Positions 8,707-56,462 of a stretch of 64,000 nt of DNA are shown here, in pieces. A model generated the notes under the pieces. The model made no database searches, was not told the origin of the DNA, and worked only from the letters and a program-made list of their open reading frames with translations. Both the position numbers and the translations under genes were made by a program. This DNA is from a virus, in IMG/VR virus record IMGVR_UViG_3300042561_001059, positions 1 to 64,000 of that record; one strand, given 5' to 3'. Every line of letters starts with the position of its first letter. Positions within the stretch are counted from its first letter, which is position 1.

Positions 8707-9108
8707 ATGGCTTACGCTGATCTGCAATCAACAACTCTTGTTGGTCGCATTGCTGATCTCACTGTTATTACTACAGAAGATGAACGCAACTGCCTGGTCG
8801 TTACTATGTATCACCGCATCTCTCAAGATGCTACGGTCACTGTCAAGTTCTTGAATAGCAATGGCTTGCTCACTGCGTACACCAATGACAATCTCGTCGT
8901 TGGTCAAGAGTTGACAGTCTCAGGAAAGATCCAGGCTATTCGTTGCTTCTATATGAAAGATGAAGAGTTGACTCCTCTCAAGCAACCTGAGTTCCAAATG
9001 AAAGTCACTGACTACGCATTTGGTTCCAAGCCCCAACCCAAGGTTGAGGGAAAGGTTGCTGCTAAGAAGGGAAAGGTACAGCCAACGCTGGAACCTGTTG
9101 AACTCTGA
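8707..9108 (+). CDS. SSB-like OB-fold protein
   Basis: TTLVGRIAD...VGQELTVSGKI pattern typical of SSB OB-folds. Confidence 0.5.
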   Translation: MAYADLQSTTLVGRIADLTVITTEDERNCLVVTMYHRISQDATVTVKFLNSNGLLTAYTNDNLVVGQELTVSGKIQAIRCFYMKDEELTPLKQPEFQMKVTDYAFGSKPQPKVEGKVAAKKGKVQPTLEPVEL

Positions 9109-9253: not shown

Positions 9254-9493
9254 ATGAAGCACATCATTAAGCTAAGTGATCGCAGCTTCCTGCACCTTGA
9301 TTCATACACTGAAAACATGGGTGAGAAGGCTGCGTCATTCGTTGGTAAAGCACTTGTCTTTATCACCGCCACAAGCATTGCTGCCATCACTACAGGCGCT
9401 ATGCTCGGTTACGACATCAGCACATTCAACTTCGATGGTAGCACCAAGCGAGTACCTATTCAGCACAGCTCTCAAGTGGAAACCAAACGGTGA
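9254..9493 (+). CDS. hypothetical membrane protein
   Basis: single hydrophobic segment. Confidence 0.45.
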   Translation: MKHIIKLSDRSFLHLDSYTENMGEKAASFVGKALVFITATSIAAITTGAMLGYDISTFNFDGSTKRVPIQHSSQVETKR

Positions 9494-9578: not shown

Positions 9579-9800
9579 ATGACCTACGTAGCATTAATCG
9601 CTGATGCAACCGGTCGCTTTGTCCATGTCTATGGCAATGCCAACTCATGGTCTCAATTCATTGATGAGCTTGAGGATGTAGGTTGCGAAGTCATTGAAAA
9701 TCAAACAGAAGACTACGAATCTCTTGAAGATATTCAAGAGTATTGCGTAACGATCCAGCAGCTAACGGGCAAGGAATCAAACTTTGTTCCTTATCCGTAA
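9579..9800 (+). CDS. hypothetical protein
   Basis: likely start MTYVALI within a longer ORF. Confidence 0.45.
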   Translation: MTYVALIADATGRFVHVYGNANSWSQFIDELEDVGCEVIENQTEDYESLEDIQEYCVTIQQLTGKESNFVPYP

Positions 9801-14635: not shown

Positions 14636-14854
14636 ATGACTAACTACACCGACGATCAACTCCTGGCCATGGCCATGGCAAACATTGGAGAATTCATTCA
14701 TGACAATTCACCTCATTATGTATTGATCGAAAAAGATCCACGTAATGAAGATGATTACGATAGTTGGACTTACGGTATGGAAGTCCTGCCTAGTGATCAC
14801 ACTTGGTATCACACATCAATTGATGTGAGTGTAAATCCAAGTGAGCCTGAGTAG
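14636..14854 (+). CDS. hypothetical protein
   Basis: 72 aa; stop overlaps the tRNA 5' end. Confidence 0.45.
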   Translation: MTNYTDDQLLAMAMANIGEFIHDNSPHYVLIEKDPRNEDDYDSWTYGMEVLPSDHTWYHTSIDVSVNPSEPE

Positions 14855-14917
14855 CCCAGCGGAAGAGGCAAACGACTTAAAATCGTTCCAGCGTGGGTTC
14901 GAATCCCTCCTCAGGCA
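14845..14917 (+). tRNA. tRNA-Leu(UAA), short variable loop, no encoded CCA
   Basis: GCCTGAG/CTCAGGC acceptor stem; AACGA-CTTAAAA-TCGTT anticodon arm; GGTTCGAATCC T-loop. Confidence 0.85.
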
Positions 14918-45638: not shown

Positions 45639-45797
45639 TTATTCAACTGGTTGAAACCACATTACGATTCCGCCTTCACGTTCGGCCCATTCTCTTGTTG
45701 CGTACGCTTCCTCTTTTGGAAGTGTTGCGCATTTTTTTTCATCACCTACATGCCAACAGATATTTACCCTGATCTTCGGGTCTCTTTTTGCTTTCAT
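45639..45797 (-). CDS. small hypothetical protein
   Basis: 52-aa ORF MKAKRDPKIRVNICW, read by hand. Confidence 0.4.
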   Translation of the reverse strand: MKAKRDPKIRVNICWHVGDEKKCATLPKEEAYATREWAEREGGIVMWFQPVE

Positions 45798-46888
45798 TTC
45801 TCAACAAGAATTGCCCATCCTGTATTTGGCCCGTCTACTTCCCAGCGACGCAACCAATTTTTGCGGCTGTATTTAATACCTTGTCCAGATTTTGGTTTTG
45901 TACTCACATAACCACCATTGCTCATATCTGCTTCTCCGTAAGGATCGTTAAAAACAAAATGCGTTGGTGTAATCCCTTTGATTACAGACCAATGTCCTCC
46001 ACCGGAAGGTTTGGCAATGGATCCTTGGTGCAGCCAACCGACAGCAAGTGGCTTGCCACTATTGATTTCACTTTCAATTAATTTTGTATTTCCATTGGAA
46101 ACAAACCTTGCATTGAGTCCCAGGTGTCTCAGTGTTTTTAGCTGAGCCATTGAATCAGTTGTATCACCAAAATTTACACGAATCTTGTTGTATTCATCAT
46201 CAGAAGCTACCTTCCCATAGAAAGCTGCAATCATTGCACAGCTAGAGGAAAAGCATTCCCTAAACCCTTTACCAGACTTATTGTCTAGTTGATAAAAATA
46301 TGGAACCGTCAATATTTTTTCATTGCTGGTAATCGGTAATGATCCCAGCTTTTCATTCATAATATTAATTAATTTTTTTGCGTATTCTGGATCTGTAGCA
46401 TATTGCTCTGTGACTAAAAGCTGGGCGCATTCATTTCTATTACTTGCTCTATTTACACCTTTATAAGTGTTGTAGTCTTTATACCAACGATCTACCAGAT
46501 ACTGAACACACGATTCAAGATCTGGAAAATCCATGAAATCATCTTTGATTTCAATCCATTTGTTATTGATAAATTCTTTTGTGCCTGCCGTACTTCCTTT
46601 ACCTTTTAATCCAAAAAAATTGTTTGTGCCAGAGGTGAACTTACCGTATCCACTTTCTAGCGCCCATTGAGCAGCAACAACTTCTGGAAATTTGGCACCT
46701 GCTTTCTTTGCAATTTTTACTAGGTCGTCCCAGGTGTTGGTTGAGTTTTCTTTTGTTCCTTGTCGGTACTGGGTGGCAAATTCCTCTAAAATTTCAGGTG
46801 AAATATTTTTTTGCAGCCACTCCCATGCATCAATTTGATGCTTTAAGTCCTTGAAGTTCTTAGCGGCATCAATAAGTTTTATTGACAT
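45794..46888 (-). CDS. endolysin: GH73 glucosaminidase plus C39-like peptidase
   Basis: AQWALESGYG, NNFFGLKG, YATDPEY; CFSSSCAM, GGHWSVI, DPYG. Confidence 0.85.
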   Translation of the reverse strand: MSIKLIDAAKNFKDLKHQIDAWEWLQKNISPEILEEFATQYRQGTKENSTNTWDDLVKIAKKAGAKFPEVVAAQWALESGYGKFTSGTNNFFGLKGKGSTAGTKEFINNKWIEIKDDFMDFPDLESCVQYLVDRWYKDYNTYKGVNRASNRNECAQLLVTEQYATDPEYAKKLINIMNEKLGSLPITSNEKILTVPYFYQLDNKSGKGFRECFSSSCAMIAAFYGKVASDDEYNKIRVNFGDTTDSMAQLKTLRHLGLNARFVSNGNTKLIESEINSGKPLAVGWLHQGSIAKPSGGGHWSVIKGITPTHFVFNDPYGEADMSNGGYVSTKPKSGQGIKYSRKNWLRRWEVDGPNTGWAILVEK

Positions 46889-46902: not shown

Positions 46903-47502
46903 CTAGTTCTCAACTGTTTCAACAAGGTCCCACTGTTGTGCTTCTTCGTTCCATTCATATTCACCAGTCTCAACTGGTTTAGCAACAGGTGCTTCCCATT
47001 TACCAGTCATTGCAACCTGGATCCAACTTGGATAAGGTTGGGTTGCATCTGAAAGTTGCGGCCAGACTGGATATTCAGGCCCGGTGATAAATGCTGCTAA
47101 CTCGTCGGTTGTCGTCGTTGCTTCAATAGCCGTAATTTTGGTGGTACATGCAAGCCGAATTGCTTGACGCCAATTCTTTGTTTCTGTATCTATTGCAATT
47201 CCTTCGTCAACTTGCCTGACGATCATCCAATCGGTTGGCAACAAAAGAGTGTATGCAGTTTGATTTGTGTTTTGGTCCCAAGTGGAAACCAATTGTGTGT
47301 GATCTTTCGGAATTAAGTGCCCTTCCGAATCGTACCCCCAATAGAACCTTTGGTCCCAAGTCGGGGGATCTGGAACTTCTTGAATGCCAATAGCTTGTTT
47401 TTCTTCCCAAGTACTAAGCTTTAGCCAATTGGCAGGATAATTAATGCCATTATGACTAAAAGCTGAGTCGGGCGCCAAGGGCCTACCATCTAAAACAAAC
47501 AT
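46903..47502 (-). CDS. tail fibre assembly/chaperone-like protein
   Basis: YPANWL, DQRFYWG, LLPTDWMIVR, WRQAIR motifs; downstream of the tail fibres. Confidence 0.6.
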   Translation of the reverse strand: MFVLDGRPLAPDSAFSHNGINYPANWLKLSTWEEKQAIGIQEVPDPPTWDQRFYWGYDSEGHLIPKDHTQLVSTWDQNTNQTAYTLLLPTDWMIVRQVDEGIAIDTETKNWRQAIRLACTTKITAIEATTTTDELAAFITGPEYPVWPQLSDATQPYPSWIQVAMTGKWEAPVAKPVETGEYEWNEEAQQWDLVETVEN

Positions 47503-47543
47503 TGCTTTTCTATTCTGTATATTTATTTTAACCTAGTTTCTTA

Positions 47544-47572
47544 TTGACTTCATCTCTAACAGCTATTAAAAT
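47544..47572 (+). promoter_or_regulatory. sigma70-type promoter of the recombinase
   Basis: TTGACT-N17-TAAAAT, 23 nt before ATG. Confidence 0.55.
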
Positions 47573-47595
47573 TTTGACACTTAATATTTCAAACT

Positions 47596-48450
47596 ATGTC
47601 AACTTCGATCCAAGAAGCCTGGGCCAACTTTAAAACAGAGCGCTCAATCGTCCTTTGCCCTACAAGTTTAACTTCTGATTATGTGGTGGTTGACAAGTGG
47701 TTAAAAAAATGTCCGATAACTGATCTTACTCAAGGAAGACAATTAATGACCTGGGTGCTCCAGCAGAAGCCAACCAAAACAAGTAGGCGAGTGGCTATGT
47801 ATGTCAAAAGCCTTTATCGATGGGCAACCAACGAAGATATTGCATTGGTAGAAAGAAATCCAATTTTGTCTTTTAAAATGCCCAAGGCGCCCCAGGAGGA
47901 TGAAGAAATTATTGTCATTCCTCGTAATGAGGTTTCAATTGTTATTTCAGCCCTGGAAGGAAAGTTAAGAAAACCTAAATACAATTGGGCCTTCTATTCA
48001 GAATTCATGCTGCAAACTGCCATGAGAACTGGTGAAGTAAGAGCGTTGCGCTGGGAGGACATTAAAGACAACAAGATTCTTGTCCATTCAAACTACACTC
48101 TTACTCATGGACACAAAGATTCAACAAAAACAAATCGTAAACGATGGGTTCCTCTCAACCAGCGTTGCCAAGAAATCCTAGACAAAACACCAAGAGAAGA
48201 TTCCTACATCTTTCCTTACAACAGATATGCATTTCAAAGTTATTTTTACGATCGCATGAAAGAGTTAAAGAAAGAAAACGTAATTACACATCGTTATCGT
48301 CCTTATGATTTAAGGCATACCGCAATCTCTCGTTGGATTGAATCACAAATTCCTGTTGCGCAAGTTGCTTCATGGGCTGGCAACAGCTCAGAAGTTATTT
48401 GGAAACATTATTGCAATGTGACCCAGGAATACGAAATGCCTGTTCTTTAG
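47596..48450 (+). CDS. tyrosine recombinase (Xer-sized, no arm-binding domain apparent)
   Basis: TAMRTGE (R), STKT (K), YDLRHT, AGNS, KHY (Y); 284 aa. Confidence 0.9.
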   Translation: MSTSIQEAWANFKTERSIVLCPTSLTSDYVVVDKWLKKCPITDLTQGRQLMTWVLQQKPTKTSRRVAMYVKSLYRWATNEDIALVERNPILSFKMPKAPQEDEEIIVIPRNEVSIVISALEGKLRKPKYNWAFYSEFMLQTAMRTGEVRALRWEDIKDNKILVHSNYTLTHGHKDSTKTNRKRWVPLNQRCQEILDKTPREDSYIFPYNRYAFQSYFYDRMKELKKENVITHRYRPYDLRHTAISRWIESQIPVAQVASWAGNSSEVIWKHYCNVTQEYEMPVL

Positions 48451-48459
48451 TGGAAGCGA

Positions 48460-48612
48460 CTACTGGGCTTTACCAGCAAGCGCCATTGCTCGGTTTTCTT
48501 CGTCTTTGACTGCTTGTCGGATCTGGCAAAGCACATGCTCTTCAGCCTTGGCGTTGCCGGAATCAATGGCAATCAAAAGCCTGATACAGAGTGAACGGTA
48601 ATCAGCAGGCAT
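48460..48612 (-). CDS. 50-aa cassette ORF bounded by two sites
   Basis: MPADYRSLCIRLL...AGKAQ*; its stop codon is an arm of site 48448-48462. Confidence 0.55.
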   Translation of the reverse strand: MPADYRSLCIRLLIAIDSGNAKAEEHVLCQIRQAVKDEENRAMALAGKAQ

Positions 48613-48626
48613 AAAAGTTGGAATGA

Positions 48627-48854
48627 CTACTGGGCTTCAAGCTCGGTGGCGATGGCGAGGAGTTCTTCGCGAGTGTCTTGCTGAGCGATCCAAGTTGCCT
48701 CTTCCCAGTTATCCGCGTCCATGGGCTTCCGACGCTGCGGCACCACCTCATCCGCAACAGCTCGCAGGGCGGCGGCAATCTCGTCAGCAGGTGCAGGGCA
48801 GATTTCACGCACAGCATCCAACACCGCCTGCGCGGCGGGGGAGAGGTCAGTCAT
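48627..48854 (-). CDS. hypothetical protein (MTDLSPAAQAVLDA type)
   Basis: high GC; ends ELEAQ* in site 48615-48629. Confidence 0.6.
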   Translation of the reverse strand: MTDLSPAAQAVLDAVREICPAPADEIAAALRAVADEVVPQRRKPMDADNWEEATWIAQQDTREELLAIATELEAQ

Positions 48855-49200
48855 TGATCTGCTCAAGGGCACGGAGAAGGATGTTGTAGTGAGCTGCGTC
48901 CAGTTCAGCATCTTCCAGCACTGCGATGGCCTGCTCCTTCAAGCTCTGCGGCTTGGGGCGGCGGGCGGCGCGGAGTTGCCGAGATTCACCAGACCAGCCT
49001 TCTTTATCCAGCCACTCACAGCACGCCTCCAGCTCCTGGTCGGCAGCGGCCTGGATTTCAGGTTCGCGTCGCCACCAACCCCATTGGGCAGCGCAACGGG
49101 CAATGTGATGAGCATATGGAATCGAACGATCGTCATACGCTGTGGTTTCCCACTGATGCACCAGCTCTGGCGGCGGGGTGGTGGGGTGTTGGTTAGTCAT
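48847..49200 (-). CDS. hypothetical protein, paralogue of 49193-49528
   Basis: HPTTPPPELV..DQELEAC..RRPKPQSLKEQA. Confidence 0.6.
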   Translation of the reverse strand: MTNQHPTTPPPELVHQWETTAYDDRSIPYAHHIARCAAQWGWWRREPEIQAAADQELEACCEWLDKEGWSGESRQLRAARRPKPQSLKEQAIAVLEDAELDAAHYNILLRALEQIND

Positions 49201-49528
49201 CGAGTTGCTCCAGGGCGAGGCCAATGATCTGAACGGCTTCAGTTGTGTCCATCTGAGATGCAGTGGCATCATCCAAATGCTCTAGCGCAGCCAGCGCCTG
49301 CTCCTTTAAGGTCAGCGGTTTAGGGCGACGGGTTTTGCGCAGGTCACGAGCCAGACTTTCGCCTTCGTGGAACTTAACGAACGTCACGCACGCCTCCAGC
49401 TCCTGGTCGGAACCCCATTGAGCAATAGAGGCAAAGACATCCGCGATGCCATGAGGCTCGACAAGCGAAGCCCATGCTCGTACCAGCTCTTCTGGTGGCG
49501 TGATCGGGTGCTTGTAATCTTGGGTCAT
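49193..49528 (-). CDS. hypothetical protein, paralogue of 48847-49200
   Basis: HPITPPEELV..DQELEAC..RRPKPLTLKEQA. Confidence 0.6.
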   Translation of the reverse strand: MTQDYKHPITPPEELVRAWASLVEPHGIADVFASIAQWGSDQELEACVTFVKFHEGESLARDLRKTRRPKPLTLKEQALAALEHLDDATASQMDTTEAVQIIGLALEQLDD

Positions 49529-49734
49529 CGTCGATCCTCCAATCGGCGGTCACAGGGGCAGGGTGTTAGCGCACCGCTGCTCCACCACCTTACCACCCTG
49601 CCAAGCCAGCTAACACGTCCAGCACCACGTGTTAAGAAATTGGCGTTTTGTTAACTTCAGGGGCTTGTATTGTCAACCCTATTGTCAACCTCGTCATCGT
49701 GCGCGGGCAGTAGAAGGCTTGTTCTCTAGTGGGG

Positions 49735-52700
49735 TCAGCGGGCGCGGGCGTATTGGAAGGGCGATTCGGCGAAGGCGGCGTAAATAAAAGTTGCTCCAGA
49801 TGCGTTGACGCGAGTGTCTGATGAGCGAGCTTTAAATCCATTGGAAACAATGTCAAAAGGCCATATATCTGCATCCGCCTGCGAGGAATTGAATAGCAGG
49901 TCGTTGCCTGCTGTGTTGTACGGACTCCGCGCAGCGTCGTAAACACGCCAATCGCCGGTTGAGTCGGACCTCTTGATAAAGAAATACCTCGGCCTAAACC
50001 CGGTGTACACAAACGGCCCATCCGCGCTGCCGTTGCCGGTGTAGCTGCCGAAACTAGAGTACCCGGCTACTGGGGTAAAACAGTAGCAAATATGGTCAAA
50101 GCTGTTGCCCCACCATGAGAGATCACCTCCTGTAAATACTGTTGATGTTGGTTCTGTGTTGTTCCAAGGGTATGTTTGCGTGTCTGCAGCGTTTGTCAGG
50201 TTTAACCGCAGGAATTTTGTAGCTCCTAGTGCAGAGTGGTAAACAGACCATGCGCCGCCAGCCCCTGTCGCCTTGTCGATAATCAGAGCCGGTTTGGCGC
50301 CCAAACCATGCCCCACGGTGAACGGTGATGACGTTCCCGTGTTGAACTTGACAATTGAAAATCCCGCCGTCGTGTTGGCCCTGACACTAGAAGTGATGGA
50401 GCCTTGTGTGTTCGTGACGGTGGAGCTTCCGGCGTCCCAGGTCCAGGCGACGTAGGTATTACCAGAAGCATTGACGTCACCGTCAGGATTAGAGCCCAAG
50501 GAAAACCCGCCTGAATCAAAAGACGTAAGGGAGTTGGTAAATGTCGCTTCTGCGCTTGTAGTGCTGCTGGCTAAGCGCTGTGTGGCACCTCTAACAATGT
50601 CATAAAGGGAATGGTTGCCAGTAGTATTTCTGACCTTTGCCCACACCAAATCAGGGCTAAACGCAAGCCCGGTGATGTTTTGTGTTGCCCCTGTGCCCGT
50701 ATACAGCTTCACGTCCATCACCGTATTAGGCTTTGTGACTAATGGCGCGGGCAAGTTTGTCGTGCAGAGCGCTTTGAAGCCGCTGGGGGCCGTGTAGGCG
50801 AAGGGGCGGGCACCTGCGTTAAAGACCGCACTTGTGCTGCCACCATTTCCTGTGGCGAACGTATACGGCCCGTTTGTTAGACCCGAATACGCCTGCCCTT
50901 GACTCGCGCCGTTTTTGTAAAAAGTAAGTGTTCCAGCGTCGGCATCAAAAGCAACACCGATAACATCGTTTGTAGTGTATGAGGCGCCGTAAGATGTTGC
51001 GCTGTTATTTGTGTACTTGTTCCCGTTGTCTGCGTAGTAACCCCAGCTATCAGCGTTGCCACCGATAAAAGTTGTTGCAACCGTGCCCGCGGCTCGCTGT
51101 AAGCCGAACATATTAGAGACGCTAGTGGCCGTAAATTCGCAGTACCATTTGCCACTGCTAATAGCGATAGTGCTCTGAGCGATGACCGACCCAGTGCTAG
51201 TGGCGGTCCAGTCGAGGTTTCCGTTGCTCAACGTGCAGTTGGCTTGCTTGCTGAGGGGATTGAGCGTCGCATAATTCCCCCTAACCTCACCCCCCACGCC
51301 CGTATCCGTCTGCGCCCCATTAGTGGGAACGTCTACGAGGGAATCGTTAGCCGCTGCAACCGAGCCGATAACGGTGGAACTGGGCGGGTTGAAATTGCCG
51401 GTGTACTTAGCTGCACCTACATACACACGGAAATCCTGCAGCGAACCATTGAAGTTTTGAGCTGCACCGCCATCAGTGGCGCCAATACGAATGGTAATTG
51501 AGCCTGAATCTCCGACGCTGCTTGCACTGCTGTAGGTGGATGTTTGCAGACCATTGATGTACATCGCCCAGGATGAGCCAGATCTCACAACAGCGAAGTG
51601 GCTCCACGCTCCTTGGGTCAGGTTTGTGTTTGAGCTAAGGATTGCTGAGCCGCCGCCAATTGAGTTCACAAACCAACCAAGAATTGTGTTGGCGCCTTGG
51701 CCGCAGGTCAGGTTGTAACGCCCAGCTTGCCATGTATCAGTGTTGCTGAAGATTGAACCGCCGGTTGAAGCGTTTGGATAAATCCAGCCTTCAATCGTAA
51801 AGTCAGATGAGCCAAAAACTATGTCATGCGTACCTGCAATACTCAGGAAATCGCCTGAGCCATCAAGCAAACCGCTGCTGCCATAAAACTTGCTTAGCCC
51901 GGTATTGGTCTTGGCATTACCGTTTGCCGTTACCGTTTTGGCGCTTCCACTGCCTTTGATCGTTGCGCTCTCGTCGGTAAATGTAGTCCCGTTATTAGCG
52001 CCATCCATTGGAAGCGCTAGACGAATCGAGCTGCTGTTGCTGTCTGTGCGGGTGCCGGTGCCTTTGGTTGTGCCGTAGGTGTCGGTGGTGTTGTAGATCG
52101 GCAGCGCACCAGATGCTGCAGCAACGGAAGTTGGGCCACCAGTGTTAATGCTGACGTTAAACGGGGTCCAGTTGTTCCCGTTGCCACTAGTGTCCTTCCC
52201 TAATGTGGTCGCGGTATTGCTGCTGTTGTCCGCGAACTCCAGATGCCAGCCTTGCGAGCCGTAGCTGCCGGTGTACGCCTTGGGGATAAGCTGGCCGGTA
52301 GTGGCGTCGGTTTCGGTGAAGCTGCTGGGGGTCAGCGCTTGGCCGTCGATGAAGTAGATGTCGGCTAGGTAGCCGGGGAAGAAGTTAGAAGAATTGAAAG
52401 TGTTTCTTCCAATATTGTGTGAAAGGGTAGAGTTTACGGCTGTATCTAAATTCAGTGTTGGAGCTGCGTTCGTGTCAAAGACGGTAATCTCTTCTCCGTT
52501 GACGTACATTTTTACTCTATTAGATGCGGTCGCCTGTGTGGTATCTACTGCAACCATTACATGATACCAAGCGGAAACATCCCTATAAACAGCAGTTGTA
52601 CGCCTTAGCTCAGCCGATCCAGTGCCGCATGAAAATTTATCGTTGGTAAAAGAAACCTGAAAATAGGTTCCTTCCGCCAAAGACGTTCCAACAATAAATA

Positions 52701-52908
52701 GTGCGTGCTCTCCTGATGCTTGGAGCCCACTCCGCTTCACCCATCCCGCCCAGGTCCAGGTGGTGCGGTTGCCCGCAGATGCGGGGGTGCGGGACAAGTA
52801 GGCACTGTCACTACTATTGAATCTGAGACTTCTGGAAATAGAGTATCCTCCAGCACCGCCTCCTTGTCCAGACGCGCCAATAAGACCGTTGTTGTGGAAG
52901 ATACTCAT
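49735..52908 (-). CDS. tail fibre / receptor-binding protein with ConA/LamG and SPRY-like modules
   Basis: SLRFNSSDSAYLSR, two LamG-like blocks (WYHVMVAVD, WSHFAVVR), SPRY-like GKWYCE..IGVAFDADAG; ends FAESPFQYARAR; elevated GC. Confidence 0.8.
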   Translation of the reverse strand: MSIFHNNGLIGASGQGGGAGGYSISRSLRFNSSDSAYLSRTPASAGNRTTWTWAGWVKRSGLQASGEHALFIVGTSLAEGTYFQVSFTNDKFSCGTGSAELRRTTAVYRDVSAWYHVMVAVDTTQATASNRVKMYVNGEEITVFDTNAAPTLNLDTAVNSTLSHNIGRNTFNSSNFFPGYLADIYFIDGQALTPSSFTETDATTGQLIPKAYTGSYGSQGWHLEFADNSSNTATTLGKDTSGNGNNWTPFNVSINTGGPTSVAAASGALPIYNTTDTYGTTKGTGTRTDSNSSSIRLALPMDGANNGTTFTDESATIKGSGSAKTVTANGNAKTNTGLSKFYGSSGLLDGSGDFLSIAGTHDIVFGSSDFTIEGWIYPNASTGGSIFSNTDTWQAGRYNLTCGQGANTILGWFVNSIGGGSAILSSNTNLTQGAWSHFAVVRSGSSWAMYINGLQTSTYSSASSVGDSGSITIRIGATDGGAAQNFNGSLQDFRVYVGAAKYTGNFNPPSSTVIGSVAAANDSLVDVPTNGAQTDTGVGGEVRGNYATLNPLSKQANCTLSNGNLDWTATSTGSVIAQSTIAISSGKWYCEFTATSVSNMFGLQRAAGTVATTFIGGNADSWGYYADNGNKYTNNSATSYGASYTTNDVIGVAFDADAGTLTFYKNGASQGQAYSGLTNGPYTFATGNGGSTSAVFNAGARPFAYTAPSGFKALCTTNLPAPLVTKPNTVMDVKLYTGTGATQNITGLAFSPDLVWAKVRNTTGNHSLYDIVRGATQRLASSTTSAEATFTNSLTSFDSGGFSLGSNPDGDVNASGNTYVAWTWDAGSSTVTNTQGSITSSVRANTTAGFSIVKFNTGTSSPFTVGHGLGAKPALIIDKATGAGGAWSVYHSALGATKFLRLNLTNAADTQTYPWNNTEPTSTVFTGGDLSWWGNSFDHICYCFTPVAGYSSFGSYTGNGSADGPFVYTGFRPRYFFIKRSDSTGDWRVYDAARSPYNTAGNDLLFNSSQADADIWPFDIVSNGFKARSSDTRVNASGATFIYAAFAESPFQYARAR

Positions 52909-52914
52909 TTCAAA

Positions 52915-53223
52915 TCACCAAGGAACGCCTGCTGCTTTGCTGGGACGACGCTGTTCTTCAAGTTGTGACTGAAGTGCGTCTTCAATTTCAGCCACTTTTT
53001 CGTCGCCAAATTTTTCTTTCACCCAACCAATGACCATGTCTTCGGTCAGATTGGCGAAAGAAACCATAGGAGTTTCAGGGCGCTCCAGGCCAATGGAGCC
53101 ATAAGCACCAGCGGAGTAGGTATCGTCTTTGGCGTCGACGGTGTAGTGGACGGTAAACACATAACCGTCACTGGTTTCGCGCTCAAGCTGAGCAACTTTC
53201 CAGGTAAAAGCAGTAGTCGTCAT
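52915..53223 (-). CDS. tail-fibre-associated small protein
   Basis: WKVAQLER..VFTVHY..LTEDMVIGWVK..GVPW. Confidence 0.6.
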   Translation of the reverse strand: MTTTAFTWKVAQLERETSDGYVFTVHYTVDAKDDTYSAGAYGSIGLERPETPMVSFANLTEDMVIGWVKEKFGDEKVAEIEDALQSQLEEQRRPSKAAGVPW

Positions 53224-54614
53224 GAGTAGTTGGCAGTAAAGACCGTGTGGATAGACGTGGAACTACGAACAATATAGTCCACCCTATCTACAGCGTTGGC
53301 AGCGGTACTTAGCGTGGGCGCCGTGCCACCAGGGAAGTCCCAGTAAGAACCCCAAGAAGCTGTCCTACCACCAGTTCCATCTTGAACGAGGAAGATACTT
53401 CCGCTTTGACCGGCGGTAATATTCGTGGGGTTTGCGATTGTACGTGCTCCACCCAATGTGACTGTAAAGTTACAATCTGCTGCTAAATCGGGGGTTATCG
53501 TTGCGCCATCGGTCAGTGTACCAATGACAGCAACAGCGCCATTTTGAATAGTGACAACACCATTCTGTGCAATCCTCATCCTTTCTGTTGGAGAAGAAGC
53601 GCCGTCAGCAGTAGTGGAGAACACTAGTCTGCCCGGCATATCGTTAGTGCCGGGGGTGCCGTCTACACGGCATTCAATAAGTGCAGCTCGGATGTAACCA
53701 GTTCCGTCCGCACCCGCAAATCGAATATCTCCAAGGAAATCACCATCTACAACGGAAGCAAATCCACCCGCCGTTGTTGAGCGTGTCTTTTTAAAATAAA
53801 CTGCGCCAGCAAAAGCGTCATTTGAAAAATGCCCAAAGTCCGCTGTGTAATAGTTGCTGCTGTTGGTTGTTACTTGAAGCCTTGCATCTCCTTGACCATT
53901 GGTAACGCTACTAGACGTGCCAACTAAGAGCCTGCCGGAGTTGTCGATGCGGGCGCGTTCTGATGCGGCGTTAGCCCCTCCGGTATGGATAGCAAGTGCT
54001 CCGTTGCTTCCCGAAGGTACAAGCAGTTTGGCATAATTAGAGCCCGTGATATTAAAGTTAAACGCTCTGGCTGAGTCCGCTGCTGCACCAGGGTCAAATT
54101 CAATAGTTCCCCCAACCACATCAAGGCGCCCTACAGGGCTCGTAGTGCCAATCCCTAGTCGGTTATTGGTCGCATCAAAGAAGACGCCACTTGACCCGCC
54201 AAGCTGAATATCACCGTCCGCTTGTATCTCTAGTCTCTTGGTCCCATTAGTTGAGATGGCTACTTGGTCAGCGCCTGGAGAGTAAAGACCGGTGTTGGAA
54301 TCGCCGGTAAATGAAATCGAAGGGCTTGCTGCTGAACCAGCCGCAAAAACACCAGAAGTAATGGTATATGTGCCGCCACTGATATTGGTAAAGTTACCGC
54401 TCGTAAAGGTTGCCGTGGTGCCAGTTACGGTAATACCGCTAACAGTTGTAAATGCTCCAACGGTTCCGGTAACTGTTACGCCGGAAATAGTTCCGGTACA
54501 AGTTACGTTTCCACTAAATGTTGGGTTTTGAACTAATCCAGAAATCTGAATGCTTTTGTCGACACCAGCATCTGTAAATGTGATGGTATCAACTTTAATA
54601 ATTCCGTACGGCAT
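53220..54614 (-). CDS. tail fibre protein
   Basis: PSISFTGDSNTGLYSPGADQ, LGIGTTSP, ERARIDNSGRLLVGT, DMPGRLVFSTT; C-terminal GQSGSIFLVQDGTG..APTLST. Confidence 0.8.
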   Translation of the reverse strand: MPYGIIKVDTITFTDAGVDKSIQISGLVQNPTFSGNVTCTGTISGVTVTGTVGAFTTVSGITVTGTTATFTSGNFTNISGGTYTITSGVFAAGSAASPSISFTGDSNTGLYSPGADQVAISTNGTKRLEIQADGDIQLGGSSGVFFDATNNRLGIGTTSPVGRLDVVGGTIEFDPGAAADSARAFNFNITGSNYAKLLVPSGSNGALAIHTGGANAASERARIDNSGRLLVGTSSSVTNGQGDARLQVTTNSSNYYTADFGHFSNDAFAGAVYFKKTRSTTAGGFASVVDGDFLGDIRFAGADGTGYIRAALIECRVDGTPGTNDMPGRLVFSTTADGASSPTERMRIAQNGVVTIQNGAVAVIGTLTDGATITPDLAADCNFTVTLGGARTIANPTNITAGQSGSIFLVQDGTGGRTASWGSYWDFPGGTAPTLSTAANAVDRVDYIVRSSTSIHTVFTANYS

Positions 54615-54650
54615 GGCAGTTCTTTTTCTTTTATTATTTTACTTTAAGTA

Positions 54651-56462
54651 TTAAGGCAAAATAATTAACGGTCCTTTGATAATAAATCCGCTGGTGCTAC
54701 CAGAAACAACACCTGAGCATGTAATCGCTACTGTTGAACCAGAAGGCTGCGTAATATGAAGCGTTTGTCCCGTTATGTTTGTAAATAAACCCGCAGTTCC
54801 TGTAATTGTTTGACCAGATACGGTTCCGGTGACACTTATACCAGAACCAAAAAATCCAGATCCAAGGGTAAATGTATTACCGGAGAAAGTAAAGTCTCCA
54901 GAAAAACTTTGATTTGCAGCTTGTAGATATTCAAATACGCCTGAAGTACCTCTAATAATATTGCCGGTGATTGTTTGACCTGAGACTTGAGTTGTGAAGA
55001 TGCCAGAAACACTGGTAAGAGTGGTGCTGTTAATTGTGTTACCAGTGATCGTGTTGCCGCTTATCTGTGTAGTAAATACGCCGCTTACACCGCTAATCGC
55101 TTGGAAATTAATTGTTCCACCAGTGATCGTGGCACCTGTAATGCTATTGAATCCAGCAGACTGACCAGTTAACGTCGTGAACTGTCCGGTATTGCCGGTA
55201 ATTGTGGCACCTGAAATCTGAGTAGTGAAGACGCCTGATTGAAAATTTGCTATTGTTCCGGTAACGGAAGCACCTGAGATTTGAGAAGTAAATACTCCAG
55301 AAACTCCAGTGATTGTGGTGGCACGTACCGTATTTCCTGTAATGACCAGGCCGCTTAACTGACTGGTAAATACACCAGATACTCCTGTAATAGTTGTTGC
55401 ATTTACCGTATTTCCGGTAATTGCGGCGCCAGAGATTTGGCTGGTAAAGACTCCTGAAACAAAATTAGCAGTTGTACCGGTAACCGTAGTTCCAGTTACA
55501 GTAGTAAACCCTGCTGTATCACCCGTAATAACCGTGCCACTTAACCGAGTAAAAACACCGGAAGTGAAATTAGACGTGGTTCCTGTAACCGTTACTCCAC
55601 TTAAAGTTCCACTGATATTGACGCCTGACGAAAAGAATCCAGATCCAAGTACAGAAAGATTGCCTGAAACGGTCAGGTTGTTTTGAACGGTATGGCCACT
55701 GGTAACCAGAGTTCCAAAGGTTCCCGTTGTTGCGTTTACTGTATTTCCAGTGATTGTGGCCCCTGAAATACGATCGGTAAACGTACCGCTAACAGCAACA
55801 ACGTTGGTAAATCCACCGAGACTTCCGGTTACAAGCGTTCCGGAAACCTGGGTAGTAAAAACGCCTGATTGGAAATTAGCCGTAGTTCCGGTAATGGTTG
55901 TACCAGTTACGGTTGTAAATCCGGCCGTATTTCCTGTTAAAGTACCAAACTGACCAGTGGTGCCAGTAATTGTCGTTCCTGTTAACGTCCCACTTACCGT
56001 TACGCCAGACGTAAAGAAAGAGTTGCCGCGTGCAAATAAAGTTCCACTGACAGTTAAATTATTTTGAACGTTGTGTCCACTGGTGGTTAGTGTTTGGAAC
56101 GTTGCGTTTGTAGCGTTTACATTAGTTCCGGTCAGCGTGGTACCACTGATCGTACCTGTGACTGTTAAATTATTTTGTACAAAAACGGCATTGAAGTTAG
56201 CAATGCCATTGACATTAGCAGCACCAAGGGTAGTTGTTCCAGTAACTTCAAGAGTGCTGTTGATTAAAAGTGGTCCAGTCAGTACACCGCCTGTGAAAGT
56301 TAAATATTTTGTATTTAAGTAGTTTGCAAATTCAGTTAAGGTAATTTTTTTATTTTTAAGCGTCGGGTCAACTTCGAATACGTGAACAATCGTCAGCAAA
56401 TCGTCCTCTGCTAACGACCCGCCCTGAATTGAGGGCAATTCCGTAATCCTTCTATTTGACAC
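54651..56462 (-). CDS. Thr/Gly-repeat fibre-like structural protein
   Basis: many (I/V)SG.T(I/V)TG.T..F.SGVFT repeats; N-terminal RRITELP. Confidence 0.7.
   Translation of the reverse strand: MSNRRITELPSIQGGSLAEDDLLTIVHVFEVDPTLKNKKITLTEFANYLNTKYLTFTGGVLTGPLLINSTLEVTGTTTLGAANVNGIANFNAVFVQNNLTVTGTISGTTLTGTNVNATNATFQTLTTSGHNVQNNLTVSGTLFARGNSFFTSGVTVSGTLTGTTITGTTGQFGTLTGNTAGFTTVTGTTITGTTANFQSGVFTTQVSGTLVTGSLGGFTNVVAVSGTFTDRISGATITGNTVNATTGTFGTLVTSGHTVQNNLTVSGNLSVLGSGFFSSGVNISGTLSGVTVTGTTSNFTSGVFTRLSGTVITGDTAGFTTVTGTTVTGTTANFVSGVFTSQISGAAITGNTVNATTITGVSGVFTSQLSGLVITGNTVRATTITGVSGVFTSQISGASVTGTIANFQSGVFTTQISGATITGNTGQFTTLTGQSAGFNSITGATITGGTINFQAISGVSGVFTTQISGNTITGNTINSTTLTSVSGIFTTQVSGQTITGNIIRGTSGVFEYLQAANQSFSGDFTFSGNTFTLGSGFFGSGISVTGTVSGQTITGTAGLFTNITGQTLHITQPSGSTVAITCSGVVSGSTSGFIIKGPLIILP

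Follow-up and report, generated by a model that had tools for sequence, protein, structure and literature searches.

The lox, FRT and dif sites have arms of 9–13 bp and spacers of 6–8 bp, and a recombinase gene beside tail-fibre genes is ordinary in lambda-like layouts too. In the T-even adhesin gp38, hypervariable segments are set apart by conserved glycine-rich motifs, according to the part of the published account available to us (PMC3157838). In the lake cyanophage locus described here, an interrupted palindrome, TAG-N9-CTA, recurs in two adjacent tail-fibre genes. The window (the whole stretch of DNA analysed, 64,000 nt) contains 17 exact copies, 13 of these within 48448-54262, and the whole genome of 83,534 bp contains 19, leaving six outside that region (~77 kb). 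The fibre genes and their sites are given below in window coordinates, sites carrying no strand; fractions of 69 refer to an alignment of the large-fibre gene with 68 homologues, and S-LBS1 is a cultured Synechococcus phage.

49735-52908, minus strand: tail-fibre/receptor-binding gene, 1057 aa, with conserved N-terminus, LamG, SPRY and DUF7483
50042-50069: overlapping site pair in a conserved box; aa 951 SSFGSY in phase 2, aa 947 VAGYSS in phase 1
50559-50573: site at aa 779, LASSTT, private, common to 1 other of 69
50727-50741: site at aa 723, LVTKPN, the DUF7483 domain starting 4 residues later; 23/69
51035-51049: site at aa 620, DSWGYY, private, common to 1 other of 69
51321-51335: site at aa 525, VDVPTN, between LamG and SPRY; 38/69
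51349-52161, minus strand: LamG block that ~800-aa homologues lack; its insertion point is an AGAG/VAAA linker
52188-52202: site at aa 236, LGKDTS; 19/69
52799-52813: site at aa 32, SSDSAY, phase 2, adjoining an SLRFN motif; 23/69
52915-53223, minus strand: DUF7936 gene between the fibre genes
53220-54614, minus strand: first tail-fibre gene, 464 aa; N-terminus AT-rich backbone, body GC-rich
53612-53626: site LVFSTT, same box in S-LBS1 at 9595
53912-53926: site LVGTSS, same box in S-LBS1 at 9265
54143-54157: site LGIGTT, variant in S-LBS1 at 9067
54248-54262: site VAISTN
54393-54445: right end of the swapped island, where identity to close relatives tails off rather than stopping at an exact site
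54521-54535: decayed LVQNPT site, TAG-N9-CAA, intact in relatives L095 and L101

A first-pass annotation had counted 11 copies in 48448-54262, ten in the fibre genes and eight of those in one codon phase. The enrichment and the phase pattern hold while the figures rise, to 13 copies in the region, 12 of them genic (8 in 49735-52908, 4 in 53220-54614) and 9 of the 12 in identical phase, the ninth being LVTKPN at 50727. The remaining three, in the other phase, encode SSDSAY (52799), DSWGYY (51035) and SSFGSY (50042). Enrichment is specific to the 9-nt spacing: when k in TAG-Nk-CTA was varied from 0 to 24, the region gave 13 copies at k=9 and 0–2 at each other k, whereas outside the region the six copies at k=9 fell inside the 2–16 range of the other spacings. 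The annotation had proposed codon-shuffled controls, and these bear the enrichment out, synonymous-codon shuffles of both fibre genes yielding a mean of 1.45 copies (maximum 8) and codon permutations 0.82 (maximum 5) against 12 observed, a number that none of 5000 shuffles reached with either method. Against an expectation of 0.70 that takes codon phase into account, 13 copies were seen, which ranks TAG-9-CTA first among 102,400 X-Nk-Y patterns (64x64x25; P=7.5e-13); the second-ranked pattern, AGT-8-CTA, is an overlap of TAG-9-CTA itself. The signal in the fibre genes is real and independent of the adjoining recombinase gene.

The same spacing stands out in other phages. Within the 68 large-fibre homologues, k=9 gives 171 copies versus 4–47 at other k, whereas their flanks (734 kb) give 109 versus 28–123; ten genes of the 464-aa family give 37 versus 0–8. 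Four of the six sites in S-LBS1 lie within the fibre plus an 86-nt spacer, the spacer copy being non-coding, and in two complete genomes, G001 and G002, the single fibre gene holds 8 of the 9 sites in the former and all 7 in the latter. No TAG-N9-CTA enrichment was detected in the AT-rich distant homologues SS120-1 and MEP301.

Approximately 10 of the 13 palindromes sit inside short junction boxes, roughly 20–100 nt in length and conserved as DNA, synonymous sites included, which separate variable modules. Cores are conserved within a box type and differ between types, and the boxes follow one another in a fixed order despite very different distances between them; the same boxes, in unchanged order, are present in S-LBS1 and in fibre genes, dozens of them, from lake phages. 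Conserved patches are 86–96% identical within genes otherwise 65–71% identical, with a site in six of seven patches and a single strongly DNA-conserved island, aa 819-836, without one. Both arms are retained in 43/53 VDVPTN and 34/41 SSDSAY contexts, and the SSFGSY and VAGYSS sites are retained in 16 and 21, respectively, of 68 aligned sequences with residues there. Linkage between flanks falls at the LVTKPN site (50727), and loose contig ends occur near LVGTSS, at 53913, 53927 and 53930. The sites at 50559 and 51035, already suspected of being fortuitous, probably arose by chance. The sites at aa 236 and 525 enclose the LamG domain (PF13385, aa 360-498), as annotated, and the junctions of the LamG block lie 13 and 26 nt inside these two sites. 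Modular fibre genes have a GC content of 0.47–0.56 (about 52%) against a locus GC of 0.39–0.63, and box depth in lake metagenome contigs is 3–5x that of the phage itself. Both fibre genes are members of modular families circulating among lake cyanophages with backbones of 39–63% GC.

The higher GC content noticed earlier between the outer sites is evident, at 0.51–0.53 across 48–54 kb compared with 0.40–0.45 in the flanks. A GC-rich island of ~6 kb (48467-54444) is replaced relative to the relative L099, and the whole island is swapped relative to close relatives, which are 96–98% identical from its right edge to ~62.6 kb. Its left edge is the recombinase-stop site, L099 homology stopping at 48466. 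The annotation's expectation that identity breakpoints coincide with sites was not borne out: 3 of 69 ends of tracts of at least 95% identity lie within 10 nt of a site versus 2.1 expected (P=0.36), and adjacent-window distance correlation is low throughout with no dip at sites. To the left of the fibre genes lie the following features.

47544-47572, plus strand: promoter-like TTGACT-17-TAAAAT, sigma-70-like, 10/12 consensus positions, a consensus match only
47596-48450, plus strand: S-LBS1-type small tyrosine recombinase, 284 aa; PF00589 60.6 bits (cut-off 27.1), phrog_1 integrase
48448-48462, no strand: TAG-N9-CTA formed by the recombinase stop codon and, as CTA arm, the stop of the convergent 50-aa ORF
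48460-49528, minus strand: small-gene block that accompanies the fibre gene in other phages
48460-48612, minus strand: 50-aa ORF within the block
48627-48911, minus strand: 94-aa ORF within the block
48847-49272 and 49193-49528, minus strand: two phrog_32006 paralogues within the block
49711-49728, no strand: TAG-N12-CTA variant of a non-coding element after the fibre stop; relatives' form (C)ACTAG[AT]GAACAAGACTA

The sites are DNA-level and not peptide-level features. Genic copies occupy two codon phases and further copies lie in non-coding DNA: at 14 of 66 homologous loci an exact, non-coding TAG-N9-CTA is found 3–21 nt past the fibre stop, the downstream sequence diverging within or at its right arm. 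An AAG-N9-CTA variant is present at 48615-48629, its CTA being the stop codon of the 94-aa ORF. Unselected positions widen the dyad to (A)NTAG-N9-CTAN(T), the third base of codon 0 being A in 7/11 box types (P=9.5e-4) and that of codon 6 being T in 10/11 (P=3.4e-5) amid mostly G/C-ending codons, although in the 464-aa family several types with the common peptide pattern G-R-[LV]-x-[IVF]-[GS]-T-[STN] may be paralogous, in which case independent types would number fewer than 11 and these binomial P values would be optimistic. In the LVTKPN-type box, TA-G is retained in 40/42 contexts while TTA, CTA and GTA codons (Leu/Val) alternate. The synonymous constraint predicted by the annotation is therefore visible but not as a peak at the sites, the six site codons being no better conserved synonymously than neighbouring box codons (0.55–0.83 versus 0.58–0.83); with conservation equal across the box, selection on the 15-mer itself is invisible within one box type. 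Variation often sets in at the A of the CTA arm, as in AGT versus TCT serine codons.

The most likely reading, to which we assign a probability of roughly 0.45, is that the boxes are joints guiding module exchange and carry a palindromic DNA signal for a candidate reader. Co-infecting related phages would exchange receptor-binding modules by recombination inside boxes, the simplest route being short-patch homologous recombination, as has been proposed for T-even adhesin genes and their conserved motifs. The statistics suggest that a dyad in at least 11–14 otherwise unrelated box types would be a selected double-strand DNA signal and no accident of spelling. Its putative reader is probably a protein dimer, which would start or resolve exchange by binding or cutting. 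Among the candidates considered (tyrosine recombinase, serine recombinase, reverse transcriptase and one shared small HNH nuclease), none is common to all site-bearing phages.

It is possible, if unlikely, that the boxes are structural motifs or motifs for ordinary homologous recombination, with the dyad arising as an incidental by-product of a peptide pattern at strand starts, hydrophobic-small-x-x-(T/S/P)-(T/S/N), combined with inherited codon choices. This pattern dictates four of the six fixed bases (NTN, GNN, NCN and ANN codons), and conservation of all box codons rather than the arms alone, the independence of box edges and exchange junctions from the 15-mer, the variability of the CTA-arm A and the possible paralogy of some box types are consistent with it. 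Synonymous shuffles that preserve the peptide nevertheless fall far short of the observed count, the three other-phase sites encode unrelated peptides, and neither the non-coding copies, the A/T preference, arranged with dyad symmetry, at two third positions outside the selection nor the first rank of TAG-9-CTA would be expected from it.

The explanation originally offered, which we consider doubtful, is that the S-LBS1-type enzyme acts on TAG-N9-CTA, the distinct cores serving as addresses for exchange of modules between matching sites with co-infecting phages or an excised circle; the enzyme could act in trans on phages without the gene. The description of the gene stands: a 284-aa tyrosine recombinase, preceded by a promoter-like sequence and with its stop codon forming the left arm of the 48448-48462 palindrome. 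The genome's sole PF00589 match, it is antisense, between the fibre block and orf199-like/lysin genes, and is 68% identical to the S-LBS1 integrase. A mean column identity of 78% and the family invariants R144, K178, Y237-D-x-R240-H241, W260-A-G-N263 and Y272, R, K, R-H and Y among them, indicate strong constraint. The family sits habitually beside such fibre genes, in three layouts: that seen here and in L099; immediately behind the fibre and convergent with it (L022, L051, L020 and L134); and, in S-LBS1, within the structural module, following the fibre in the same direction. Among 50 loci with recombinase homologues, 16 have a large fibre convergent downstream, and a 464-type fibre lies downstream in 6 and upstream in 7. 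The recombinase stop is an arm of [stop]-N9-[CTA/TTA/TCA] in 14/32 unique contexts (exact TAG-N9-CTA in 6/32), S-LBS1 has a site 10 nt ahead of the recombinase start codon, and the left edge of the island coincides with the stop-codon site. No close homologue was found among 185,579 bacterial and archaeal reference genomes, whereas viral contigs gave 54 loci with the same method; prophage copies were not seen, and mitomycin C revealed no lysogeny in S-LBS1, according to the part of that report available to us (PMC6157547).

Sites nevertheless persist without the enzyme in cis. The complete genomes G001 and G002, without a PF00589, PF00239 or PF00078 match (tyrosine recombinase, serine recombinase, reverse transcriptase), keep 8 and 7 fibre sites, contrary to the expectation that sites occur only in genomes carrying this recombinase, and the canonical site number is not clearly different with (2.5, n=6) and without (1.83, n=52) a recombinase next door. 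Tract ends are not enriched at sites, the LamG junctions and the right edge of the island lie off them, one to three ancestral insertions may explain the stop-codon coincidences, and the lambda-like layout offers an ordinary reason for the position of the gene. The annotation's observation is thus confirmed and its interpretation partly supported: DNA-level sites, boxes between modules and a fibre-adjacent enzyme family agree with it, while recombinase dependence, tract ends, site-codon conservation beyond the box and site format do not, and recombination by the enzyme is a prediction from sequence.

Interrupted 3-N9-3 palindromes with outer symmetric bases are a format for dimeric DNA-binding proteins and some restriction enzymes. 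A site of this sort, operator-like and bound by a regulator or nucleoid protein from host or phage, or a restriction-modification/methylation site of the picocyanobacterial host, is improbable here. A host factor would fit the result that no phage-encoded factor tested is present in every site-bearing phage; however, sites are confined to fibre genes, most clearly in G001 and G002, the flanks have no clear excess or deficit, and selection would remove a defence target rather than retain it. We know of no precedent for 6–8 operators inside one structural gene. Least probable is that rare NTA and NCT codons four apart pause ribosomes at module starts and aid fibre folding or trimerisation. In its favour, 9/12 genic sites use NTA (Leu/Val) and NCT codons at module starts in a GC-rich gene and Pfam domain borders lie near sites, but phase-2 and non-coding sites bear the same dyad, the bias, towards A 5' and T 3', is dyad symmetry rather than general rarity, and the same codons are retained in phages of 39–63% GC.

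Compared with lox, FRT and dif, the arms of TAG-N9-CTA are shorter in informative bases (3–5) and the spacer is longer (9 bp). Exchange by the recombinase at such sites would parallel, in nature, cassette exchange based on heterospecific sites. The sfx site, as far as the portions of the reports available to us describe it, has 12-bp arms and a 7-bp core, the core together with a 12-bp arm being conserved (PMC11852207, PMC4176322), unlike the 3–5 informative bases per arm and 9-bp spacer found here. In the T-even adhesin gp38, as described in the available part of the account (PMC3157838), conserved motifs lie between hypervariable segments, much as junction boxes lie between variable modules here.

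Exact copies of the interrupted palindrome TAG-N9-CTA (a site, with TAG and CTA as its arms and N9 as its core) are concentrated in the fibre region of this phage, 13 lying in 48448-54262 and 6 in the remaining ~77 kb, confirming the motif observation of the first-pass annotation. The genome is a single contig of 83,534 bp (G000; 100% complete by CheckV), the first 64 kb of which are covered by the window, and the phage is present in many lake-water metagenomes.

Features of the fibre locus, and the small nuclease gene (window coordinates unless marked)
45794-46888, minus strand: endolysin
46903-47502, minus strand: 199-aa orf199-like gene (MFVLDGRPLAPD...)
47596-48450, plus strand: tyrosine recombinase, 284 aa
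48460-49528, minus strand: four small ORFs
49735-52908, minus strand: large fibre gene, 1057 aa, with LamG, SPRY and DUF7483 domains
52915-53223, minus strand: DUF7936 gene
53220-54614, minus strand: fibre gene, 464 aa
54651-56462, minus strand: 603-aa gene
G000:C1:64549-64911, outside the window: HNH endonuclease, 120 aa

GC content is 0.51-0.53 at 48-54 kb versus 0.40-0.45 on both flanks. A second GC-rich stretch beyond the window (G000:C1:72000-76000, 0.50-0.53) has no excess of the motif, with one copy at spacer length 9 in 70-77 kb. The genes 3' of the large fibre are all on the same strand; in most relatives the orf199-like gene is directly 3' of the fibre, and here and in a subset an antisense recombinase gene is inserted between the two.

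Within 48448-54262, other spacings from 0 to 24 give 0-2 copies each, and codon phase alone fails as an explanation because spacings 3, 6, 12 and 15 share that phase. Synonymous-codon shuffles within each fibre gene, in which proteins and codon usage are kept, give a mean of 1.45 and a maximum of 8 copies, codon permutation of the fibre genes gives a mean of 0.82, and 0 of 5000 shuffles of either kind reach the observed 12. In a scan of all 64 x 64 triplet pairs at 25 spacings with a codon-phase-aware expectation, TAG-9-CTA ranks first (P = 7.5e-13; ~1e-7 after correction for 102,400 tests), and the runner-up, AGT-8-CTA, represents the same sites shifted by one base. Composition-driven chance is therefore ruled out by the spacing, shuffle and pattern-scan results. 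Of the genic copies, nine lie in one codon phase (phase 1, NTA/GNN ... NCT/ANN); the other three are in a different phase and encode very dissimilar peptides. Four of the 9 phase-1 sites begin with a TTA codon; a tRNA-Leu(TAA) at 14845-14917 reads TTA.

The same sites are observed in other phages. We retrieved 103 IMG/VR loci with relatives of both fibre proteins. Across 68 non-redundant large-fibre relatives, spacer length 9 gives 171 in-gene copies versus 4-47 at other spacings, and in their flanks (734 kb) 109 copies versus 28-123. The copies recur at six alignment columns, corresponding to aa 32, 236, 525, 723, 947 and 951 here; of the 68-69 aligned sequences with residues at a given column, 16-38 retain the site there. 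Those at aa 620 and aa 779 are private and probably due to chance, in line with the earlier suspicion that one or two copies might be fortuitous. In ten relatives of the 464-aa family, 37 copies are found at spacer length 9 versus 0-8 at other spacings. Here the sites lie in boxes, short patches conserved as DNA between variable modules, and the box vocabulary is small (VAISTN, LGLGTS, VGIGTT, LVGTSS, LVFSTT and LVQNPT); box order is constant while inter-box distances vary by hundreds of residues. In an all-pattern count by box type, which lacks normalisation for triplet frequency and is therefore uninformative, TAG-9-CTA reaches 20 box types and 93 instances. A further class, [LVI]VGTS[ST] (63 contexts), was rejected as a new box, being mostly an antisense reading of the VDVPTN site. 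The VDVPTN site at 51321-51335 and the LVGTSS site at 53912-53926 are reverse complements at 12 of 15 positions and constitute an inverted pair, one member in each fibre gene, with 2.6 kb between them.

Two complete phage genomes with terminal repeats carry the same pattern, G001 (45.5 kb) with 9 copies, 8 of them within its one large fibre gene, and G002 (39.4 kb) with 7, all within the large fibre gene. The cultured Synechococcus phage S-LBS1 (34.6 kb) has 6 copies, three in the tail-fibre gene and one in the 86 nt that separate this gene from the integrase, and also carries LVGTST and LVFSTT boxes. No motif enrichment was observed in the AT-rich distant homologues SS120-1 and MEP301.

The peptide pattern hydrophobic-small-x-x-T/S/P-T/S/N fixes four of the six motif bases. 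In the box ahead of DUF7483, however, the first codon is TTA (18), GTA (16) or CTA (6), so that Leu and Val interchange while TA-G is intact in 40 of 42 unique contexts. Moreover, an element (C)ACTAG[AT]GAACAAGACTA sits 3' of the large-fibre stop codon and is an exact site, 3-21 nt past the stop, in 14 of 66 loci. DNA beyond this element falls into at least eight different classes, divergence starting inside or at the right arm. When viral contigs were scanned for the element, ~10 of 78 examined matches followed a fibre gene, as judged by eye; the others are unrelated, as expected for 14 fixed bases. Among 11 phase-1 box types, third positions outside the selected bases show a further regularity: the third base is A in the codon preceding NTA in 7 of 11 types, and T in the codon following NCT in 10 of 11 (binomial P = 9.5e-4 and 3.4e-5 against gene third-position backgrounds of 0.18 for A and 0.29 for T), while the codons between and around these two mostly end in G or C. 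Several 464-aa-family boxes share G-R-[LV]-x-[IVF]-[GS]-T-[STN] and may be paralogous, and the 11 types are thus not fully independent. Since the A and T positions mirror each other, the motif reads (A)NTAG-N9-CTAN(T). Combined, the Leu/Val switch, the 3' element and the third positions indicate a DNA rather than a peptide signal. It is not read as a hairpin, the arm-adjacent bases showing no covariation. The boxes thus bear a common palindromic signal that is real but unexplained.

Comparison with single relatives reveals patches 86-96% identical in genes otherwise 65-71% identical, and 6 of 7 patches contain a site. Along 69 aligned genes, nucleotide distance alternates between 0.25-0.3 and 0.5-0.63; variable segments are split by conserved motifs, as in a modular fibre of the T-even type. 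A conserved island at aa 819-836 has no site. The LamG block at 51349-52161 lies between two sites and is absent in ~800-aa relatives, its junctions (AGAG/VAAA linker) being 13 and 26 nt from the flanking sites. Relative to L099, an IMG/VR locus with related fibres, a 6-kb island is replaced, the left edge of which (48466) coincides with the site that includes the recombinase stop codon; no exact site marks the right edge (54393-54445). In lake metagenome contigs, box depth is 3-5x that of the phage itself, and the boxes are therefore common to several co-occurring phages. Segments between boxes are replaced in contigs from four lake runs, and a few loose contig ends fall at site edges (53611, 53913 and 53927/53930, among the 24 of 240 loose ends listed). 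Among 15 of 72 joints listed for the four runs, in contigs that drop rare variants, no inversion or excision joint was observed. Logan contigs of the phage fragment across the fibre region (48000-54700, four lake runs), and 12 of 50 contigs carrying recombinase homologues stop no more than 700 nt past the gene; this suggests that boxes break assemblies.

The best reading of these results is a modular fibre gene family whose parts move between very different lake cyanophages via short DNA-conserved junction boxes. The first-pass annotation went further, proposing that the neighbouring recombinase swaps modules at the sites, each core being a unique address, and predicting that identity breakpoints and synonymous conservation would peak at the sites, and only in genomes carrying the enzyme. 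No significant clustering of breakpoints at the sites was seen: of 69 ends of tracts with at least 95% identity in the large fibre (megablast), 3 are no more than 10 nt from a site versus 2.1 expected (P = 0.36), and 10 no more than 30 nt versus 5.9 expected (P = 0.06). Seed-and-extend tract ends pile up at the CTA arm, counts that are heavily pseudo-replicated and partly due to AGT/TCT serine switches. Adjacent-window distance matrices correlate poorly along the whole gene with no dip at sites, and flank-to-flank linkage, measured as continuity of similar pairs, falls sharply only at aa 720-730, the aa 723 box. Synonymous conservation of the six site codons within a box is 0.55-0.83, no better than that of their neighbours (0.58-0.83).

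The recombinase itself is the sole PF00589 match in the genome (60.6 bits versus a cut-off of 27.1, residues 129-276; phrog_1 integrase, E = 1.2e-37). Tyrosine recombinases use a catalytic set of Arg-I, Lys, His-x-x-Arg, His/Trp and a Tyr nucleophile. The family here is well conserved: R144 (AMRTGE), K178, R240-H241 (YDLRHT) and Y272 (KHY), the last being the putative nucleophile, are invariant in 10 family members (alignment A2), as are Tyr237 and G262-N263, with W260 three residues before N263; in place of Tyr237 and G262-N263 other tyrosine recombinases usually have the first His of HxxR and G-H, respectively. A phmmer search against the PDB returned 0 hits, and the protein is not a XerC/XerD equivalog by NCBIfam (31 bits versus 329.6 for XerD, 27.2 versus 335.15 for XerC).

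Viral contigs contain 54 loci with its relatives. The same pattern-based method, which reaches only close relatives, detected no close homologue when applied to 185,579 bacterial and archaeal species (one genome each), the only two matches being 24-26% identical (Lacrimispora and a Saprospiraceae MAG). No attP was identified, so that neither mark of a lysogeny integrase, homologues integrated in host genomes or an attP/attB pair, was detected in these searches. The S-LBS1 integrase is 68% identical and is directly 3' of the tail-fibre gene within the structural module. Zhong et al. 2018 (PMC6157547) report that the fibre gene is low in GC (53.8%, against 60.2% for the genome) and that mitomycin C revealed no lysogeny; they regard the enzyme as serving lysogeny, placing putative att sites in other parts of the genome, and the term-searched passages make no mention of palindromes.

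The recombinase loci are also rich in sites. In 50 loci analysed, 37 have a divergent orf199-like gene upstream, 16 a convergent large fibre downstream and 13 a 464-type fibre on one side. TAG-N9-CTA occurs 52 and 45 times in the 3 kb on each side of the gene versus 2-34 and 1-17 for other spacings, with 2 copies and no enrichment inside it. The stop codon is followed by exactly N9 and CTA/TTA/TCA in 14 of 32 unique downstream contexts, 6 being exact sites; in most of these the element is the fibre 3' element, one arm of which thus contains the end of the recombinase gene. One to three ancestral insertions, each placing a ~0.95-kb single-gene unit between the fibre and the orf199-like gene, may account for these contexts by descent.

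Action of the recombinase at the sites, mainly in trans, is a possible explanation of the signal. Against it, G001 and G002 have sites yet encode no tyrosine recombinase, serine recombinase or reverse transcriptase, site number does not clearly differ with or without the enzyme next door, and arms carrying 3-5 bp of information around a 9-bp spacer are unlike sfx sites and likewise unlike those of Cre, Flp and Xer. The mechanism failed two of the tests proposed with it. That S-LBS1-type recombinases are fibre-module exchange enzymes rather than lysogeny integrases, acting on (A)NTAG-N9-CTAN(T), also in trans in mixed infections, with differing cores addressing each junction, is in our estimate unlikely.

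A different protein might read the signal. The phage, G001 and G002 have in common the fibre block, the small ORFs, the orf199-like gene, the lysin, a dCTP deaminase and the small HNH nuclease. The nuclease is found in 4 of 4 site-rich and 3 of 5 site-poor near-complete records and is absent from S-LBS1; with no clear link to site richness, it was rejected as the reader. Its relatives, 37-45% identical, occur in most phages with the fibre cassette; in G001 and G002 only a few kb separate them from the lysin and the orf199-like gene. The small ORFs were likewise rejected, having no Pfam family, a PHROG of unassigned function and no fold match: Atlas gives viral hypotheticals and weak RHH-like structural rows (TM 0.29-0.37), and an all-helical AlphaFold model (pLDDT 75.7) has 0 Foldseek hits in the PDB at E<=0.001. 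The phrog_32006 small proteins (48847-49272 and 49193-49528; alignment A1) are themselves modular, with variable middles and conserved ends (MTQDYKHPITPP, ADQELEACC, RRPKPPSLKEQAL and RRALEQLDD). A ~70-nt leader ahead of a phrog_32006 gene (GGTGGTAAGGTGGTGGAGCAGCGGTGCGCTAACACCCTGCCCC...GATTGGAGGATCGACG-ATG, 49530-49610) is conserved in several phages without an Rfam match; the region 49290-49607 is 95% identical to that of L006, and in the IMG/VR loci L003, L006, L009, L016, L025 and L031 the leader is just 3' of the fibre 3' element.

Tail fibres decide which cells a phage infects, and most of what is known about the movement of fibre parts among unrelated phages comes from T-even coliphages. 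In this lake cyanophage community, with one member cultured, common fibre parts are joined by palindrome-marked boxes. Should an enzyme recognise the mark, host-range change would have a new, testable recombination signal, and the presence of a recombinase family without evidence of lysogeny beside fibre genes would be explained; should the mark prove incidental, the locus still offers a clear and well-sampled example of module exchange guided by boxes, among phages ranging from 39 to 63% GC. Literature searches for the motif strings (TAG-N9-CTA, TAGN9CTA, TAGNNNNNNNNNCTA and 'TAG N9 CTA') found no paper in the searched library, and titles and abstract openings of papers on fibres with tyrosine recombinases and shufflons, or on cyanophage fibre mosaicism, contained nothing on the palindrome.

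Diversity-generating retroelements likewise diversify phage receptor-binding proteins; here there is no reverse transcriptase (PF00078) in the phage, G001 or G002, and no template/variable repeat pair or long direct repeats in the fibre genes. In integrons a small tyrosine recombinase abuts a short-gene array, the sites share only short inverse core triplets and the ends of cassettes fall within the sites; attC sites are 57-141 bp and active as folded single strands. In contrast, the sites here are 15-19 bp, without pairing covariation and inside coding modules; the best NCBIfam integron-integrase match is 29.6 bits versus a cut-off of 220, and Rfam gave no attC-like elements in 47000-55000 (0 matches of any kind at E<=1).

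As in a shufflon, a tyrosine recombinase lies beside a fibre gene with multiple short sites at module borders. The sfx sites of R64 Rci, as described in PMC4176322 and PMC11852207, have one 7-bp core and a 12-bp arm in inverted orientation and support inversion only; another shufflon is that of Rin in Bifidobacterium prophages (PMC6109161). Here, however, the cores all differ, 3-5 bp per arm are shared and sites persist without the enzyme. Inverted copies of one crossover site around cassettes are not present: 47000-55000 contains no inverted spare cassettes or long inverted repeats, only 13 pairs of 14-32 nt that are 70-93% complementary. The plus strand of 54143-54157 reads GTGCCAATCC, equal to the R64 sfx 7-bp core plus the first three bases of the right arm as given in a table of PMC4176322; this 10-nt match, in one box type only, is probably chance.

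Heterospecific lox/FRT cassette exchange, with common arms and different spacers giving each junction its own address, is an engineering practice of which we know no natural example. The recombinase proposal is alike in idea, catalysis at the sites being a putative activity; if true, it would describe a natural site-specific cassette-exchange system for host range in a lake cyanophage community.

The closest precedent for the modular reading is that of the T-even adhesins. According to Trojet et al. 2011 (PMC3157838), gp38 and T-even distal fibre genes consist of variable segments split by short conserved motifs, recombination between which swaps specificity among related phages; module movement via boxes is thus already known in kind. 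What sets the boxes here apart is conservation at the DNA level among phages whose backbones differ greatly in composition. The layout of conserved motifs and hypervariable segments in T-even fibre genes was reportedly also studied by Tetart and colleagues in 1998. In the lake phages, one interrupted palindrome, with some non-coding copies, is common to at least 11 box types from two unrelated fibre families, and the locus is accompanied by a family of tyrosine recombinases.
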